DNA from: Candidatus Kaftiobacterium secundum
GTDB taxonomy: Bacteria; Sysuimicrobiota; Sysuimicrobiia; Sysuimicrobiales; Kaftiobacteriaceae
DNA length: 64,000 nt
Assembly: GCA_031459765.1 (NCBI GenBank)
Contig: JAVKHY010000001.1
Span: 468,156-532,155 of the forward strand
Direction: 5' to 3'
The notes beneath the pieces were generated by a model. It was not told where the DNA came from, searched no databases, and worked only from the letters and a program-made list of their open reading frames with translations. A program made the position numbers and the translations under genes. Shown here piece by piece: positions 37,782 through 46,563 of the stretch. Numbering within the stretch: the stretch's first letter is position 1; every line of letters begins with the position of its first letter.

Positions 37782-37856
37782 TCCGCGGTAGCTCAACGGT
37801 AGAGCGTCCGGCTGTTAACCGGAGGGTTGTAGGTTCGAATCCTACCCGCGGAGCCA
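37782..37856 (+). tRNA. tRNA-Asn (anticodon GUU)
   Basis: cloverleaf: acceptor UCCGCGG/CCGCGGA, D-arm GCUC..GAGC, anticodon loop CUGUUAA, T-arm GUAGG-UUCGAAU-CCUAC, G73, encoded CCA. Confidence 0.9.
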
Positions 37857-38179
37857 CTTAGAACGGCCCCCCGTTTTCGACAGTATCGCAAACGCTGGTT
37901 TCAGGTTCAGATGCACCTTTCCGTCGTTTAGGACGGCGTTCGAAGCGACCACATTCAGAAGGGTCTTCTTGCGGTCCGAGTCCCCATTCATGAAGATTTC
38001 GGAGAGTCGCCGGGCGAAGATCAGGAGGGGTGACCTTGCGGATGGAGGGCACGGATCTGCGCCCAGGTGTTGTACGTGAGCAAGTCGGCACCTCGCCAGT
38101 TGGTGACTGGGAGGGCCTTTTCCTCTGGCATTCTCACACCCCCTGGGGGCGCCTTAGGGGGTGGGCCAGATTTCGAGCA

Positions 38180-38419
38180 TCACTCCTGGATCAGTTTACA
38201 GGCATCGCTAACACCATGGGCTCGATGGACTTGCGCGGCAGGTCCAGCAACTGGCCGTGGAGGTACTGCAACCCCCCCTGCCCGTTGTTCGCGCCGGCGG
38301 AAGAGGGGGCTGAAGATGGCGTGGTAGGCCTGGAGTTCCTCGACGAGGGCCTCCACGTCCCGGGGCGCCAGATTCACTGTTGGGGGTGAGGCAAGGACAG
38401 GGGCGGGTGTCCGTGGCAT
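38180..38419 (-). pseudogene. transposase N-terminal fragment (IS701-like)
   Basis: 79-aa ORF with ...LQAYHAIFSPLFRRREQR... resembling IS701/IS4-type transposase N-termini; no DDE domain follows. Confidence 0.4.
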
Positions 38420-38636
38420 GGGTGCGACTCCTGGTCCGACGTCTGCTGCGACGATGGCGACGACCGTTGCCAGGCCGATTGTGCTACGCTCGGAGGTTAA
38501 TGTCTCGTTGTAATACTAAGGATCAACCCTGCTAGGAAGACGCTGCTCGCATTCGGGCGTGCCGCACAACGGCCGTTTGGGACCGTCAGCTTCGAAGATA
38601 GACGTAAGATTGATACCCGAATTGCTGAGATCCTGA

Positions 38637-38903
38637 ATGACTGACCAACTGCTTGTCGTTCAATTTCCTCACCCTGGCCATGAGCACGGGTCGGATTGGG
38701 ATAACGTCAAGGAATGGAACGTGGGCCGCCACGCGCGGAAGTTCATGGAAGTTTCCGGGCGGTGGCGAGAGACCTCCGATCTCTCGCGGCCAGAGAGCGC
38801 AAGGGCGGCATCGTCTTCTGGGGTGAGGGGGACCGCAATCGTTCGTAAGATCGTCCTGCGCGGGGAGTCGATGCGCAAACTCTGCGCCAAGCGGCGGACA
38901 TGA
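38637..38903 (+). CDS. hypothetical protein
   Basis: 88-aa ORF in the lower-GC segment; no recognised motif. Confidence 0.25.
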   Translation: MTDQLLVVQFPHPGHEHGSDWDNVKEWNVGRHARKFMEVSGRWRETSDLSRPESARAASSSGVRGTAIVRKIVLRGESMRKLCAKRRT

Positions 38904-39254
38904 GGACGCGCACCAGGGCCGTGAGGGGGGACGGGTGAATTACTTACGCCACGCCGAGAGGGGGTGAGACGTCTCCGAGACGGCGGCTCGTCGCTGCGCT
39001 CCGACGGTGATCGCTATCACTGGACTGGGTGATCGGTAAGGCGCGAAGCGGCCGTTGGGAATCACACTGAACTGGGTGTTCGAATTCCGCGAAATCCGCA
39101 CGACGCTGCCCTGGGGTCGCCGGGAAGGACACAAATCATGGCTGTTGCGTTACTCCTGTCATGAAGACATATTTGACCTGCCCCCCGAAAACTGATCCAG
39201 GCTAAATGAGACTGCCGCCCTGGGGGCGAAGACGCAGCCCCTAAGGAGGCAGCC

Positions 39255-39521
39255 ATGCGGAAGAGTCGCTTCACCGAGGAGCAGATCATCCTCATCCTGC
39301 GGGAGGCCGAGGCGGGCGCCGCGGTCACGGAGCTCTGCCGCCGGCACGGGATAACCAAGCAGACCTTCTACCGCTGGAAGGAGAAGTATAGCGGTCTGAG
39401 CGTCGACGAGGCGCGGCGGCTGCGGCAGCTGGAGGATGAGAACCGGCGGCTGAAGCATCTCGTCGCCGATCTCACGCTGGACAATCAGGCCCTGCGGACG
39501 GTGCTCGCAAAAAAGCCCTAA
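39255..39521 (+). CDS. IS3-family transposase OrfA (HTH)
   Basis: MRKSRFTEEQIILILREAEAGAAVTELCRRHGITKQTFYRWK... typical OrfA; leucine-zipper-like C-terminus. Confidence 0.85.
   Translation: MRKSRFTEEQIILILREAEAGAAVTELCRRHGITKQTFYRWKEKYSGLSVDEARRLRQLEDENRRLKHLVADLTLDNQALRTVLAKKP
39509..39515 (+). other. programmed -1 ribosomal frameshift heptamer A_AAA_AAG
   Basis: A AAA AAG in the orfA zero frame just before the orfA stop (39519..39521). Confidence 0.7.
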
Positions 39522-40369
39522 GGCCCGCCGCGCGGCGAGAGGCCGCCCAGATCGTCCGGCAGGAGCTTGGCCTCTCGGAACGCCGCGTGTGCGGGCTGCT
39601 GGGTCTGGCGCGATCGACGGCGCGCTACCGCAGCCGGCGCGGCCAACCCGAAGTGCTCGATCGCCTGCGGATGCTCGCCGCGCGCTGGCCGCGGTACGGT
39701 TATCGCCGCCTGCACATCGAGTTGCGGCGGGAGGGGATGCGGATTAATCACAAGCGGGTGTATCGCCTCTACCGGCTCCAGGGGCTCGCGCTGCAACGCC
39801 GAACGCGCAAGCGCGCGGCCGGGCTGCGGGGGCTGCCGCTCGGCGTGCCGAGCCGTCGCAACCAGCGCTGGTCGATGGACTTCCTCAGCGATGCCCTGGC
39901 CAGCGGGCGCCGGTTCCGGGTGCTGATCGTCCTAGACGACGGCATCCGGAAGGCGCTGGCGCTCGAAGTAGACACGTCGCTGCCGGGGCGGCGGGTGGTG
40001 CAGGTCCTGGAGCGATTGATTGCGGCGTACGGGAAACCGGAGCTCATGGTGATCGATAATGGGCCGGAGTTTGCCGGACGTCTCTTAGATCAGTGGGCGT
40101 ACGAGCACGGGATCAAGCTCCACTTCATCGAGCCAGGCAAGCCGGTCCAGAACGCCTATGTGGAGAGCTTCGCCGGAAAGCTACGCGATGAGTGCTTGAA
40201 CGGGCACTGGTTCACCACCCTGGCCGATGCCCGGCAGACCATCGAGGCCTGGCGGCGGGAGTACAATGAGATCCGCCCGCACAGCGCGTTGGGCGATCTC
40301 CCGCCAGAGGAGTTCGCACGGTTGGTGGAACAAACAGAGCTCGCTCCCCAGGCTGCAGTCACATTATGA
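39509..40369 (+). CDS. IS3-family transposase OrfB (DDE/rve integrase), made as OrfAB by -1 frameshift
   Basis: rve-domain pattern (WSMDF...VLIVLDDGIRKAL...HSALGDLPPEEF); frame is -1 relative to orfA. Confidence 0.8.
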   Translation, partial: KKALRPAARREAAQIVRQELGLSERRVCGLLGLARSTARYRSRRGQPEVLDRLRMLAARWPRYGYRRLHIELRREGMRINHKRVYRLYRLQGLALQRRTRKRAAGLRGLPLGVPSRRNQRWSMDFLSDALASGRRFRVLIVLDDGIRKALALEVDTSLPGRRVVQVLERLIAAYGKPELMVIDNGPEFAGRLLDQWAYEHGIKLHFIEPGKPVQNAYVESFAGKLRDECLNGHWFTTLADARQTIEAWRREYNEIRPHSALGDLPPEEFARLVEQTELAPQAAVTL

Positions 40370-40942
40370 CTGGACCAGAAAAGGGGGGCAGGTCATATTC
40401 GCCCTGGGTGGACTTAGGATGCGTTGCATCACTACCACACCGCTTTCTTTGACACCAAACTTCTTAGGGGGTTGTTTTTCTATGATATCGAAGCCAACAC
40501 GTTGAAAGAATCGAAGGGCCTGCTGGTTGTGCTCCAAAACGCCGATCCGAATCCTTCGGGCACCCTGGCTCGCTGCCCACTTCTCAAACGCAGAGAATAC
40601 CTCGGAACCTACGCCCTGCCGCCTGCGTGACGGATGTAACAACATTAACCCGATGCTCCATTCGCCAGCCGCCGGATAATCCCGGATTACATCAAGAACA
40701 CCTGCCAGAATGTCATCAGCCTCAAATAGACCAATCAGAAGTTTGTCTTCGTAGTGCTTTCCCTCGGGCAATGCGATGAATGTGCTATGCGCTTCCGAAG
40801 GTCCAGGGGGCAATCCGAACTCCAGTTCAAAGTACTCTTGGGATTGCTCGAAGAGTTCTTGCAGTGCGGGAACATCCTGCTCCGCGATTATTGCCGCGGA
40901 CCAGGCCCCTGTTCGAAATAACTTGTTCCGGCGAGCGGTCAT
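40364..40942 (-). CDS. GNAT family N-acetyltransferase; 3' end runs into the IS3 right end
   Basis: GNAT motif RRQGVGSEVFSAFEKWAASQGARRI; the last about 10 codons are encoded by the IS right inverted repeat. Confidence 0.7.
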   Translation of the reverse strand: MTARRNKLFRTGAWSAAIIAEQDVPALQELFEQSQEYFELEFGLPPGPSEAHSTFIALPEGKHYEDKLLIGLFEADDILAGVLDVIRDYPAAGEWSIGLMLLHPSRRRQGVGSEVFSAFEKWAASQGARRIRIGVLEHNQQALRFFQRVGFDIIEKQPPKKFGVKESGVVVMQRILSPPRANMTCPPFLVQS

Positions 40943-40991
40943 GAAATTGCAGCGAGCGCTACCGAACGCGCTGCATCATCTCTGTGAAGGA

Positions 40992-41201
40992 TTACCTTGT
41001 CTTATCCTCGACATCGCCGCTGAGCACAAGTAGGGTTCTGGACAGAGCCGCAAGAATCGGAATGACTTCGCCACGTACGGCATTCCGGGAATGCGACGGG
41101 TCGAAGAAATTGTCCGCCATGATGTCCTGGATGTCAGCAATCGTGTGCTGACCATCACATAGTCTCCAAATCAAGTAGGTGGTCGTACTCATACCAACCA
41201 T
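40992..41201 (-). CDS. PqqD-like peptide chaperone / RiPP recognition element (RRE)
   Basis: YLIWRLCDGQHTIADIQDIMADNF...RGEVIPILAALSRTLLVL matches the PqqD/RRE pattern; track ORF trimmed to MVGMST. Confidence 0.55.
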   Translation of the reverse strand: MVGMSTTTYLIWRLCDGQHTIADIQDIMADNFFDPSHSRNAVRGEVIPILAALSRTLLVLSGDVEDKTR

Positions 41202-41320
41202 GCCGCGGATCCCTGGAGAATAGCAGATTGCAGCTCCCCACTCTGGGAGAAACCGACACCGGACCGCTGGATTCCTGCGATATGTCTCCTGTTCTCGCTG
41301 TCTAGCCCCTTTCACAGATT

Positions 41321-42334
41321 CTATCCTCCCTGGACCTTCCAGCACAGTGGGTCGGGTGCGTCCCAGCATCCCGTTACATAGAACGCCGATGCTCGGCAAC
41401 CTCCTCCGCAGGCGGCGAACAGCTGACACCCATCGCACTCACCTCTAGGCCTCACGTGGCGTAGTGACGTCCATGCGGGAGAATCCCACATTTCAAGCAG
41501 TGGTTTGGTCCAAATATTCCCATAATAGCATACTTCCCTGAGATAAGAGCAGCCAATGACATTCCCGCAGGCATCGACCGTACATGCTTGCGTGCAGCAG
41601 TTGTGGATATTGGGGTAGTATCGATGGGCCACAGTGATGCCCTCAACCGACTTCAGACTCTCAAGGGCATCACGAAGTTCTACTTTGGTGGGGGAAATCT
41701 CAGCCCAATTCCGTTTCGCCCCGCCTACGTAGTAGACGCCTAGCAGATTCACTCTCCTTACTCCAAGGTTCCTTGCAAACTCTATGTAATCCTGAAGCAG
41801 CAGGATGTTCTGACGTATGACCGATGTGTAGAGAATTGTCTCAACCCCAGCTGATCGTAGATACTCTATGCCGCGAATCGTTGCCGCAAAACTCCCGGGC
41901 GTTCTCGTGACCGCCTCATGGGACGTCTGCGTAGGACCGTGTAAAGCAACAAATACCGCACTGACTCCGAGTTGATAGGGGCGGCGAGCTGCCCGGCTGT
42001 CGAGCAGCGACGCATTGGTGGATATATCTACAGAAAGTTGGCGTGTTGCATGGTCCAAGATCTCAAACAAGTCGGGTCTGGAGAAAGGTTCTCCTCCCTC
42101 AATGAGTAGGCCGAGGAACTGGCTCTCCACCAGGTAATCAATAAATGAGGTGATTTCTGCTGTCGAAAGCTCGCCTGGGGCTGGTTCGGCACTACATCGG
42201 TAACAATGAAGGCAGCGCAGATTGCAGGCAGCCGTGACCTCGAGGGTACACGAGATTGGTCTTGTTGGTGGTTTCACTGGCTTACCCTCTCTATGGAGGT
42301 ACTCCCTTCTTGTAAACCGTGGGCGCGATGTCAT
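41321..42334 (-). CDS. radical SAM enzyme with C-terminal SPASM domain (peptide-modifying type)
   Basis: CNLRCLHCY (CxxxCxxC); Cys-rich C-terminus CTQACTVDACGNVIGCSY...CDGCQLFAACGGGCRASA; start uncertain. Confidence 0.75.
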   Translation of the reverse strand: MTSRPRFTRREYLHREGKPVKPPTRPISCTLEVTAACNLRCLHCYRCSAEPAPGELSTAEITSFIDYLVESQFLGLLIEGGEPFSRPDLFEILDHATRQLSVDISTNASLLDSRAARRPYQLGVSAVFVALHGPTQTSHEAVTRTPGSFAATIRGIEYLRSAGVETILYTSVIRQNILLLQDYIEFARNLGVRRVNLLGVYYVGGAKRNWAEISPTKVELRDALESLKSVEGITVAHRYYPNIHNCCTQACTVDACGNVIGCSYLREVCYYGNIWTKPLLEMWDSPAWTSLRHVRPRGECDGCQLFAACGGGCRASAFYVTGCWDAPDPLCWKVQGG

Positions 42335-43547
42335 AAGGCCACAGGGCGTGTCCCGCCAAGAACGCACCTAAGCTCAGGAGGCTAGCCACTGCAAATAGAG
42401 AGCGTGTGGGGAAGTATTGAGCTAGTGCGCCCCAGGTCATCATGCCAAGAACCTGTGCACTCTGGATCGCTAAGGTGCTAAACGCAAAGACACGTCCGCG
42501 CAGAATATCAGGTACCAGCCGCTGTAGGATTGTGGTAAGCAGGATTGCAGTGAGGGCGTTCCCGATACCGCCTACTGCCAGCATCGCGAGGACAGTCGCT
42601 AAGCTCACACTAGTAGCCACTCCCATTGTGGAAACGCCCAGGAGCAGCGATCCGCCCAAGAAGAGGCGTCGCCAACTCCAATGGTGGCCAACGCGCATCA
42701 GGAGGCCGGAGCCCACGACCATGCCGAGACCCCAGAAGGTGACCATCATGCCGAAAGCAAGCTCGGCGTTGGCAGAGATTTCGCGGGCGAAAACCGGCTC
42801 AAGAGCGTTCAACGCGGCGGCCCCGAGAATGGTGGCAGCCACGATCGTCACGGCTCCGAGCGCAACCTTCTGACCAATTAGGTAGTTGAAGCCGGCCAGC
42901 ATGTCTGAGTGAAAGGACTTGTCAAACTTCTCGACACCATTGGTGGGCAAGCCACGCATACGTATAGTGACAAGTAACAGTGCGGATATCAGGAACGAAA
43001 CGGCATCAACCACAAAGGCACCTCTGGCACCGACAAGCCCCAGCGCTATCCCGCCGACGGCGGGACCTGCTACCATCGCGCCGGTGTTTAAGCTCTGACG
43101 GAGCGAGTTGAATTTCAGCAACGATCTTTCGTCAACAAGATTTGGAAGGACCGCGGCGAGGGCTGGACCGAAGAACTGTGACACAGCACCGACTGAGAAC
43201 GCGGCCGCCAACAATAGCCACAACTCGTTTGTGAGCACCATGACTACAAGAAGTCCGGCTCGCACTAGATCGCTGATAATTAATATGTTCCGTCGATCGT
43301 AATAGTCTGCCACGACTCCGGCGAAGGGTGCCACGAGAATGGCCGGCAGTAGCTCGAAAAGCAAGGAAAAAGACGCGAGAATCGGTTGGCCAGTCCAGTC
43401 TAGTACCAGAAGCGGCAAGGCGATGTAAGCCAACCAGTCACCTATCTGCGACAGAAACTGACCCAGGAGGAGCCGAGCCAAATCCCCACGTATCTTACTC
43501 GCCCGTCGTCGTAGCGTGCCAAAATCAGGCGTCACAGGGTCACGCAT
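42291..43547 (-). CDS. MFS transporter (EntS-like exporter type)
   Basis: 12-TM MFS pattern; lower-GC codon usage. Confidence 0.75.
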   Translation of the reverse strand: MRDPVTPDFGTLRRRASKIRGDLARLLLGQFLSQIGDWLAYIALPLLVLDWTGQPILASFSLLFELLPAILVAPFAGVVADYYDRRNILIISDLVRAGLLVVMVLTNELWLLLAAAFSVGAVSQFFGPALAAVLPNLVDERSLLKFNSLRQSLNTGAMVAGPAVGGIALGLVGARGAFVVDAVSFLISALLLVTIRMRGLPTNGVEKFDKSFHSDMLAGFNYLIGQKVALGAVTIVAATILGAAALNALEPVFAREISANAELAFGMMVTFWGLGMVVGSGLLMRVGHHWSWRRLFLGGSLLLGVSTMGVATSVSLATVLAMLAVGGIGNALTAILLTTILQRLVPDILRGRVFAFSTLAIQSAQVLGMMTWGALAQYFPTRSLFAVASLLSLGAFLAGHALWPYDIAPTVYKKGVPP

Positions 43548-43563
43548 CTCAACAACCCAGGCG

Positions 43564-44853
43564 TCACGCGCCGGATTCCCCAATTTGAGGTACCCGCTGC
43601 ACAGTTCCCCAGGGAACGAAATACACTAAGCCACGATCCGACATCTGACGCAACATGAACGAAAACTCCGCGGCAGTCACCCCGGCTCGCCGCCAGAGTT
43701 CCGTCGAAAGCTCGTGAAGCGTAAGCCTTCCGTCAACGCTCAACCATATAAGTGCACCAGCGGCATTGAGGCGAAAAACCCGCTCCGTGTCAACGTCCAA
43801 TAGTACGAATGCCCCGGGGCGGACTCGCAGGTACACTACCCCCGGAGCTCGAACGGGAATCAACGAGACGTCTTCCTCAGGGTTGGCAGCAATATACGCG
43901 TTGCTCACGAACCCGCTACGACGCAACCGGCAAATGCTCCCTGCAATGTCAGCGTAAGGGTAAGGGAGAGCTACTAAATCAGCATCCCGGCGTGGAATCT
44001 GCTTCGTCCCAAAACTATGAGAGTATACGCGGTGCAAGACCGCGGCATCGACTCGCGAGAGCAATACGAGGTGTCGATACCCGACATGGTAAGCGACAGC
44101 AACCGGTCCTCTTGCGCCGCTCAGAGGATCCTCGGGCATGTCCCGGAGTTCGAACCATTTGTTCCCTTTCGGAATTTGGCGTGAAGGCTTAACCCCGGCC
44201 TCTTGATAACAGGAACGCAGGAAGTTCCACTCTTCCCAGCGCTCCTTGAACCCCAGGGTCCGCTTTAGGGGGACACGTCCCACTACTCTGTAGGCTTCAT
44301 CGATCAAATCCTGACCGACCCATCGCCTTAATATTTCCGCCGCGGTCTCCTGACTCAGCCCCTGCTCCACTTCGTATCTGCGCTCTGGGCTCAGCTCATC
44401 CTCGTCTGCAGGCGGAAGAATGTGAACACCGAAGCGCGCAGGATCCTGCGCGACGCGCGAAAGCACGTCCAACCGAAAGATACCCACCCCATTGGAGCAG
44501 TGCTGGTTTCCAAATTCGCGGGTCGTTAGCTTTGATATTTCGTCCAGGAAGGTAAGAGTCCGTTCTGCATCCTCGGCTGTTTCGCCGGGGAATCCCAGGA
44601 AACAGAATAAGTGATAACCAATGCCTCTTGCTAAGCATCGTTTCAGAACAGGAACTATGTCGGCAAGTTTGACCCCTTTGTCCATGAGATCAAGAACTCG
44701 TTGATTGTAGCTCTCCAACCCGAACTGGATGATTCGCATACCCGCTCGCGCTAACTGAGCAACCAAATCCTCGTCAAGGTTCGGGTTGAAGCGGGTCTCC
44801 CCGTACCACCGGAGCACAAGCGCCTGATCGAGAATACTGCAGGAGAAGCACAA
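43564..44853 (-). pseudogene. 5'-truncated radical SAM enzyme fragment with C-terminal PqqD-like RRE domain
   Basis: radical SAM C-terminal half (FGLESYNQRVLDLMDKG) and RRE-like tail (VFRLNAAGALIWLSVDGRLTLHELSTELWRRAG); frame closed by TAA at 44860..44862 so the Cys-triad N-terminus is absent. Confidence 0.6.
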
Positions 44854-44889
44854 TGCCCTTTACTTTACCTTCGTCGATGAGACGCTTGA

Positions 44890-46563
<1,674 letters not shown>

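Follow-up and report, generated by a model that had tools for sequence, protein, structure and literature searches.

A probable remnant of a horizontally acquired peptide-modification operon with two radical SAM enzymes in Candidatus Kaftiobacterium secundum

The window analysed here, a 64,000-nucleotide stretch of the Candidatus Kaftiobacterium secundum assembly GCA_031459765.1 (contig JAVKHY010000001.1, positions 468,156 to 532,155 of the forward strand), contains a block of DNA of lower G+C content (GC) between a tRNA-Asn gene and a P-type ATPase gene. The block carries an operon of five genes, all on the minus strand and separated by gaps of only 5-49 nt. They encode a GNAT acetyltransferase, a stand-alone PqqD-type recognition element (RRE) for peptides that are ribosomally synthesised and modified post-translationally (RiPPs), a SPASM-domain radical S-adenosylmethionine (SAM) enzyme, a transporter of the major facilitator superfamily (MFS), and half of a second radical SAM enzyme with its own fused RRE. 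I conclude that this locus is very probably the inactivated remnant of a horizontally acquired, RRE-dependent RiPP cluster that once had two complete radical SAM enzymes. The evidence lies in the composition of the operon, in a rearrangement scar at its head, and in related clusters that preserve the missing parts.

Genes and composition of the block

The features of the block and of its borders, in window coordinates, are as follows.

37782-37856, plus strand: tRNA-Asn (GTT), found by ARAGORN (Rfam tRNA, 74 bits); left border of the lower-GC block
37857-39173, no strand: stretch of intermediate GC (0.607) next to the tRNA, with short open reading frames (ORFs) only
39174-40395, plus strand: insertion sequence (IS) of the IS3 family, 1222 bp, with orfA at 39255-39521 and orfB at 39587-40369 (Pfam HTH_Tnp_1, rve and rve_3)
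40364-40942 (native part 40396-40942), minus strand: GNAT N-acetyltransferase (Acetyltransf_1, 54 bits)
40992-41315, minus strand: stand-alone PqqD-type RRE, 107 aa (24.2 bits for Pfam PqqD, whose cutoff is 23.4, with the 107-aa gene model)
41321-42277, minus strand: PqqE-like SPASM radical SAM enzyme, 318 aa (Radical_SAM 65 bits, SPASM 22.5 bits)
42291-43547, minus strand: MFS transporter of the EntS/MFS_3 secretion type, 418 aa (MFS_1 107 bits, MFS_3 89 bits)
43564-44839, minus strand: C-terminal half of a class B (cobalamin-type) radical SAM enzyme, an RRE fused at its C-terminus, 424 codons (Radical_SAM and PqqD)
44840-44920, plus strand: inverted relic of the class B radical SAM gene, about 80 bp, encoding QEKHNALYFTFVDETLEPGILRRLSAS, the 27 codons that originally preceded ILDQALVLRWYGETRF
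44921-46563 (L003 8255-9901), plus strand: heavy-metal P-type ATPase, 5'-truncated and of host GC (E1-E2_ATPase and Hydrolase)

A preliminary description of this DNA, made from its letters alone, had assigned the five operon genes to GNAT, PqqD-like RRE, SPASM radical SAM, MFS and radical SAM-RRE types, and profile searches against Pfam and NCBIfam uphold all five assignments. The same description saw a lower-GC island of about 7 kb. The composition shift is real and well beyond chance: GC falls from 37857 to about 44920, between the tRNA-Asn and the truncated ATPase gene, and the operon itself (40396-44919) has a GC of 0.551 and a GC at third codon positions (GC3) of 0.55-0.63, against 0.69-0.70 and 0.83-0.94 in the remaining window. 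The block is not uniformly low, however, as it includes the stretch of intermediate GC at 37857-39173 and, at 39174-40395, an IS3 element of host-like GC. The earlier view of the cluster as foreign is borne out by these figures, which support an origin of the operon outside the host and, by extension, a putative horizontal acquisition.

Of the features of a tRNA-integrated genomic island, only the composition shift and the adjacency to a tRNA gene are present. A search for a second copy of the 3' 25 nt of the tRNA-Asn found none across the window at up to three mismatches, and so no attachment-site (att) repeat, and no integrase domain occurs among the scanned ORFs of 37857-44920. An Rfam scan of the block for a riboswitch or other RNA matched the tRNA alone. 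The stretch next to the tRNA is probably decayed island DNA. None of its ORF fragments matches Pfam, it is not repeated elsewhere in the window, and two of its ORFs, searched by tblastn, have no match in plasmids. A suspected likeness of one ORF there to the N-terminus of an IS701-type transposase is unsupported.

The SPASM enzyme appears to be intact, as judged from its alignment: it retains the CxxxCxxC motif (C12/C16/C19) and seven further cysteines that are invariant among its ten closest relatives. It falls under the cutoff of every NCBIfam model, and the best solved relative of its family profile is PqqE (6c8v), matched over the full length with an E of 6.5e-35. The stand-alone RRE finds its best sequence match in the PDB, a weak one, in PqqD (3g2b), and six of eight aligned orthologues match Pfam PqqD. 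When the stand-alone PqqD-like proteins were compared with the fused RREs by hhalign, the probability was 97.5% (E 5.6e-12), so that both kinds of RRE are homologous. A coding sequence (CDS) for the SPASM radical SAM enzyme, the PqqD protein or the IS3 element is missing from the gene list in the public record.

The GNAT gene is part of the cluster and no accidental neighbour, since its product shares 34% identity (E 1e-19) with the GNAT encoded after the class B radical SAM gene of a related cluster (L113). A GNAT gene co-occurs in nine of the relatives' genome loci. The end of the window's copy has been altered by the IS3 element, which shows all the marks of its family: an orfA with a helix-turn-helix domain, an orfB with a DDE-type rve domain, terminal inverted repeats (TGACCTGCCCCCC) and a short target duplication, here the 4-bp TATT at 39170-39173 and 40396-40399 as read from the sequence. 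It inserted three codons ahead of the GNAT stop, exchanging the last two codons and appending seven; removal of the IS in silico yields a 185-aa ORF ending in ...PPRANMSS, and no precursor gene appears downstream of GNAT after this removal. As its GC is host-like, the element probably hopped in after the arrival of the island. The five short-read contigs from other runs that extend to this side of the operon all break off at 40367, which is 29 nt within the IS end.

The scar at the head of the operon

The first gene of the operon is the most damaged. The preliminary description had taken it for the C-terminal two-thirds of a radical SAM enzyme; only about half is left, 424 codons of about 790-820, and the enzyme is not a generic radical SAM protein but one of the cobalamin type (class B). 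Its match to the Radical_SAM model covers positions 88-166 only, and the fragment lacks both the B12-binding domain and the CxxxCxxC cluster motif. Alignment to relatives of 735-821 aa places its beginning at about residue 385, and the family hidden Markov model (HMM) matches from position 335 of 751. Full-length relatives contain B12-binding and Radical_SAM domains, and the one in locus L009 a PqqD domain as well. The best NCBIfam families of the fragment are cobalamin-type, the top match being TIGR03975, "RiPP maturation radical SAM C-methyltransferase". Against the cutoff of 281.85 bits for this model, the fragment reaches 57 and two full-length relatives reach 114.5 and 124.5. The domain architecture is thus that of class B, and the scores place the protein outside TIGR03975 itself. 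The RRE that had been proposed for its C-terminus is confirmed by a PqqD domain at 32.2 bits and by profile matches in the PDB to the lasso-peptide RREs TfuB1 and TbiB1 as well as to PqqD.

The 5' truncation of the cluster, which had also been noticed earlier, is borne out by this alignment start and by an inverted relic of the same gene. The break had been placed at 44853-44890. It actually lies at 44920/44921, and the bases from 44840 to 44920 are a piece of the class B gene in the opposite orientation: by hmmsearch with the family HMM, the plus strand of 44828-44920 corresponds to positions 307-333 (E 4e-8), the minus-strand part starts at 335, and the minus-strand reading of the relic scores below zero. 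A frameshifted continuation of the enzyme past 44853 on the minus strand (PTEYAWFKRLIDEGKVKGI) was considered and rejected, the bases being the antisense of FVDETLEPG and the HMM fitting the plus strand only.

Beyond the junction the ATPase gene is damaged in the same way. It lacks about 200 N-terminal residues, comprising the metal-binding domain and the first helices, and its match to the ZntA-type model PRK11033 begins only at position 203 of 731; the missing piece, sought by its heavy-metal-associated (HMA) metal-binding motif, was found nowhere in the window. The gene list of the public record gives the truncated ATPase as a CDS of 548 aa. Thus, two divergent genes, each without its 5' end, meet at a junction that bears an inverted relic of one of them.

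Over 21 kb the window is 100% identical to contig JAVKIQ010000005.1 of GCA_031459405.1, a metagenome-assembled genome (MAG) assigned to Armatimonadota. The source is a MAG and the junction joins segments of very different GC, both of which would be in keeping with the truncation being an assembly artefact and the real cluster being intact. That explanation is extremely improbable. Five other sequencing runs, assembled independently, gave contigs that match the DNA with 100% identity from 40367 up to 46754 at the furthest, junction included, which argues against a chimera, and the junction is internally coherent in that the relic holds codons 307-333 directly beside the part that runs from 335 onward. 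A real rearrangement fits either of two histories, an inversion between both genes followed by loss of nearly the whole inverted segment, or a single template switch. Short inverted repeats lie near the breakpoints (44817-44831 with 44874-44888, and 44893-44903 with 44982-44992) and could have mediated such a switch.

Related clusters and their precursor family

Looking in other genomes for intact homologous clusters, as had been proposed from the start, recovered both a precursor family and full-length class B enzymes. Scanning genomes, one for each species, yielded 261 loci that encode relatives at 34-41% identity, and a metagenome scan with the class B enzyme returned 308 loci. The SPASM enzyme, a precursor and the class B enzyme occur together in 12 of the 80 genome loci retrieved, mostly with GNAT and MFS genes too; the hosts of these 12 are several Streptomyces, Rhodococcus ruber, Kitasatospora and two Actinomycetota MAGs. 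Intact sets of the five gene types recur in Streptomyces, R. ruber, Kitasatospora and metagenomes, and many other relatives consist of the SPASM enzyme, PqqD and the precursor only, without a class B gene. The pairing of two such enzymes had been called unusual and perhaps undescribed. Other genomes carry this pairing too, and neither a curated family nor a paper describing it was found. Searched against NCBIfam and Pfam, the precursor, the SPASM enzyme, the class B enzyme and the GNAT have either no match to a named family or matches under its cutoff. The literature search, run on the core motif strings and on SPASM/B12/GNAT combinations, turned up no paper; subscription journals are poorly covered by it, and novelty is unproven.

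The closest relatives resemble the window in detail. Locus L012, whose SPASM enzyme is 55% identical, has genes for an RRE protein, an MFS transporter, the SPASM enzyme and PqqD in the window's order (55/43/43% identity), and its MFS protein is 43% identical to the window's at the matching position. In L009 (SPASM 51% identity) a class B radical SAM-RRE enzyme precedes the SPASM enzyme and PqqD. The contigs of both loci end before any precursor gene is visible. The next, L002 (SPASM 45% identity), has a 110-aa precursor ORF followed by the class B radical SAM-RRE, SPASM and PqqD genes; this ORF carries the motif NPEIRTVSYA, and the shared motif ties the window's own subgroup to the precursor family described below. 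Some loci also depart from this layout. At 58-1275 of L012, upstream of the MFS gene, the RRE is followed by a nucleotidyltransferase domain, and the N-terminus of the protein lies beyond the contig end. At 188-4518 of L009 there are two tandem class B genes (622 and 821 aa), each with an RRE-like C-terminus, ahead of the SPASM and PqqD genes. Streptomyces clusters add a cytochrome P450 right after the GNAT (L038 14530-15819).

The precursor of the relatives is a peptide of about 55 aa with the motif P-A-V-E-x-(V/I)-(Q/E)-P-E-(I/V)-R-(T/S)-x-(A/S)-Q-Y-A-(L/M)-L-P-S-M, preceded by a leader with an invariant Leu (L..LK.K...PAVE) and followed by an acidic tail; that of R. ruber reads MTNHNDRDALLKRLKGKLRETPLGDPAVETIQPEIRSVSQYAMLPSMRAGFRLDDADDA. 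P, R and A are invariant across the family, and E and Y, seven residues apart, are nearly so. It matches no Pfam or NCBIfam model, those of NHLP and Nif11 leaders included. Among 5.8 billion proteins, an alignment-based search found 58 precursor clusters, all annotated "hypothetical protein" and none with a Pfam domain. Peptides of this kind sit beside the enzymes at many loci. One metagenomic locus (L115) contains a 146-nt direct repeat that gives two near-identical precursor genes of 53-55 aa (1320-1487 and 1858-2019), flanking the PqqD gene.

Variants of the motif occur in larger proteins. In Hyphomicrobiaceae (L076 5073-6110; also L068, L063, L066, L071, L055 and L051), an ORF after PqqD carries up to six tandem units of about 32 aa, PAV(E/D)xVNQQVRTSMSVP(F/Y), and then a C-terminal domain of about 130 aa without a Pfam match. 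Bradyrhizobium and Mesorhizobium have one unit and the same domain.

The preliminary description had seen no precursor gene, and none was found in the window by two HMMs and a motif scan in all six frames of the 64 kb; the best HMM E was 0.47, and positive controls gave 1e-8 to 1e-26. A PDIRT...YA match at 42925-43005 on the minus strand (PDIRTVTCHYTYA) is a 27-codon out-of-frame stretch within the MFS gene, has no leader and is insignificant by HMM, and I regard it as due to chance. At all 20 loci of this clade where both genes are visible, the class B radical SAM gene of the relatives has the precursor gene directly upstream, and it is this very stretch that is deleted from the window. Such synteny agrees with the earlier suggestion that the precursor went with the missing 5' portion.

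Interpretation and comparison with known systems

What would the ancestral system have looked like? Judging from the relatives, its operon would have run in the order precursor, class B radical SAM-RRE, MFS, SPASM radical SAM, stand-alone RRE and GNAT. Both RREs would dock the conserved leader of the precursor. The SPASM enzyme would then put a radical crosslink into the conserved core, and since PqqE is the nearest solved relative and the core has a conserved Glu and Tyr, these two residues are the obvious candidates; the simplest guess is a Glu-Tyr carbon-carbon link as in PqqE. C-methylation of unactivated carbons may fall to the class B enzyme and acetylation of an amine of the product to the GNAT, and the MFS pump would export that product, perhaps a signalling peptide with a crosslink and C-methyl groups, perhaps a quinone-like peptide. 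In the host, a rearrangement (inversion plus deletion, or a template switch) has cost the operon its precursor gene, its promoter region and the N-terminal half of its class B enzyme, with B12 domain and Fe-S motif, and the neighbouring host ATPase gene its 5' end; the inverted relic stayed behind. The host IS3 inserted near the GNAT stop later.

The earlier reading of a foreign and partly decayed system is supported, with the corrections given here. The other four genes are still open, keep their conserved residues and show no inactivating mutation. The present system is most likely non-functional because it has neither a substrate gene nearby nor a native promoter. It might be argued that a trimmed system still works, with the SPASM enzyme, the RRE, the GNAT and the MFS pump using another promoter and a precursor encoded elsewhere in the genome. 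The SPASM enzyme holds all family-invariant residues, and the many relatives with only the SPASM enzyme, PqqD and a precursor indicate that this module can stand alone. On the other hand, every relative keeps its precursor inside the cluster and the window has none, and the native 5' region is gone, the operon now abutting a truncated divergent gene. On balance, a working trimmed system is improbable.

Several points weigh against reading the locus as the dead remnant of an acquired RiPP cluster. The four remaining genes are free of inactivating mutations, and the case for a dead cluster is that precursor, promoter and half of an enzyme are missing, not that these four genes have decayed. The search for a precursor in the source genome covered the 64-kb window. 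The route of acquisition is unproven, neither an integrase nor an att repeat having been found. In class B enzymes from actinobacteria, Pfam detects no C-terminal PqqD domain. The chemistry (crosslink, C-methylation, N-acetylation and export) I infer only from likeness of sequence to other enzymes. Finally, in alpha- and beta-proteobacterial relatives the near-invariant Glu of the precursor is replaced by Gln and the Tyr often by Phe, which weakens a strict PqqE-type Glu-Tyr model, and I hold the crosslink model loosely.

The direct biological weight of the window is small, since the cluster is most likely dead, and what the locus shows is how a foreign biosynthetic operon may decay in a host genome through a rearrangement scar and an IS insertion. 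Its value is as a pointer to a coherent and apparently uncharacterised gene family, which combines a PqqE-like SPASM enzyme and RRE, a class B radical SAM-RRE, a GNAT, an MFS pump and an unnamed, nearly Cys-free precursor. I put at about even the chance that this family is an undescribed RiPP class, defined by a nearly invariant PAVExVQPE(I/V)R(T/S)xxQYA(L/M)LPSM core, a PqqE-like SPASM enzyme with its RRE, a cobalamin-type radical SAM-RRE, acetylation and export, and found in Streptomyces, Rhodococcus, Kitasatospora and other actinobacteria, with repeat variants in Hyphomicrobiaceae, Bradyrhizobium and Mesorhizobium. That the core varies so little between genera suggests that the product is conserved and its target or role likewise, which would be unusual for antibiotic-type RiPPs. 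As the family is present in cultivable Streptomyces and Rhodococcus, its chemistry is directly testable there.

Among known systems, the biosynthesis of pyrroloquinoline quinone (PQQ) is the closest in several respects. Like PqqE and PqqD, the window's proteins pair a SPASM radical SAM enzyme with a separate small peptide chaperone of the PqqD fold, and PqqE is the best solved full-length match. PqqA bears an E-x-x-x-Y motif whose Glu and Tyr are joined by PqqE, and in the precursor family described here, too, a conserved Glu and a conserved Tyr lie within a few residues of each other. However, the locus is not a pqqABCDE cluster. The window's enzyme scores 89.6 bits against 381 for PqqE (TIGR02109) and its RRE 18.4 against 46 for PqqD (TIGR03859), none of the five operon genes is pqqB/C/F-like, and the cluster adds a class B radical SAM enzyme, a GNAT and an exporter. 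The precursor is longer than PqqA, with another motif and an E-to-Y spacing of seven.

Mycofactocin biosynthesis provides a second comparison, in which MftC, a SPASM radical SAM enzyme, and MftB, a stand-alone RRE, act on a short precursor. MftC gives the top NCBIfam score of the window's enzyme (149 bits), but the cutoff of this model (TIGR03962) is 265, the actinobacterial relatives reach 116-122 bits, and the enzyme falls outside the family. MftA ends in a Val-Tyr tail; the precursors described here have no such tail, and the operon has no mftD/E/F-like gene.

These likenesses raise the question of whether the family makes a peptide-derived redox cofactor or an intracellular modified protein, as PQQ and mycofactocin systems do, rather than an exported product. 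The near-invariance of the precursor core across genera, as in PqqA and MftA, together with its Glu and Tyr, is in keeping with this, as are the proteobacterial versions, which have no exporter and in which the motif is fused to the domain of about 130 aa. Yet the PqqE, PqqD and MftC scores lie far under their cutoffs, the operon lacks the accessory genes of either pathway, and an MFS pump of the secretion type and a GNAT, joined in Streptomyces by a P450, are typical of secreted, tailored peptides. A cofactor-like product is unlikely, and an exported, modified peptide is the more probable reading.

The class B enzyme with its C-terminally fused RRE recalls the C-methyltransferases of proteusins (PoyB/PoyC type). 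C-terminal RRE fusions on proteusin radical SAM enzymes of the cobalamin type have been noted (PMC7470986), and the PoyB group is treated as B12-dependent C-methyltransferases (PMC10288494). The precursors of the relatives differ in matching neither NHLP nor Nif11 leaders, and the TIGR03975 scores of full-length relatives are far under the cutoff. The system thus resembles PqqE/PqqD or MftC/MftB joined to a proteusin-style class B methyltransferase with a C-terminal RRE, yet by these model scores, gene contents and precursors it belongs to none of them. A GNAT inside a radical-SAM RiPP cluster is also seen in the HaaN type of cyclophane RiPPs (NF041716); the match is faint (16 bits against 250), and HaaN is a precedent for the role of a GNAT only, not an orthologue.

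Lastly, the preliminary description had proposed a maturation system of the sactipeptide, ranthipeptide or PQQ-like kind. The RiPP layout stands, with PqqE as nearest solved relative, and the thioether types do not. A SPASM radical SAM enzyme with an RRE is indeed the usual layout of sactipeptide and ranthipeptide classes, and there are weak sub-threshold NCBIfam matches to StsB, PapB and AlbA. All thioether-maturase models, these three included, are far under cutoff, however, and in place of a Cys-rich core, the precursors recovered from relatives contain a single Cys in 3263 residues, which contradicts a thioether system for the family and makes one hardly credible for the window. Measured against RRE-dependent radical-SAM RiPP systems in general, the locus has the maturase motif and PqqD-fold RREs, both discrete and fused, and lacks the precursor gene that its relatives retain; the family as a whole looks like a new variant of this kind of biosynthesis.

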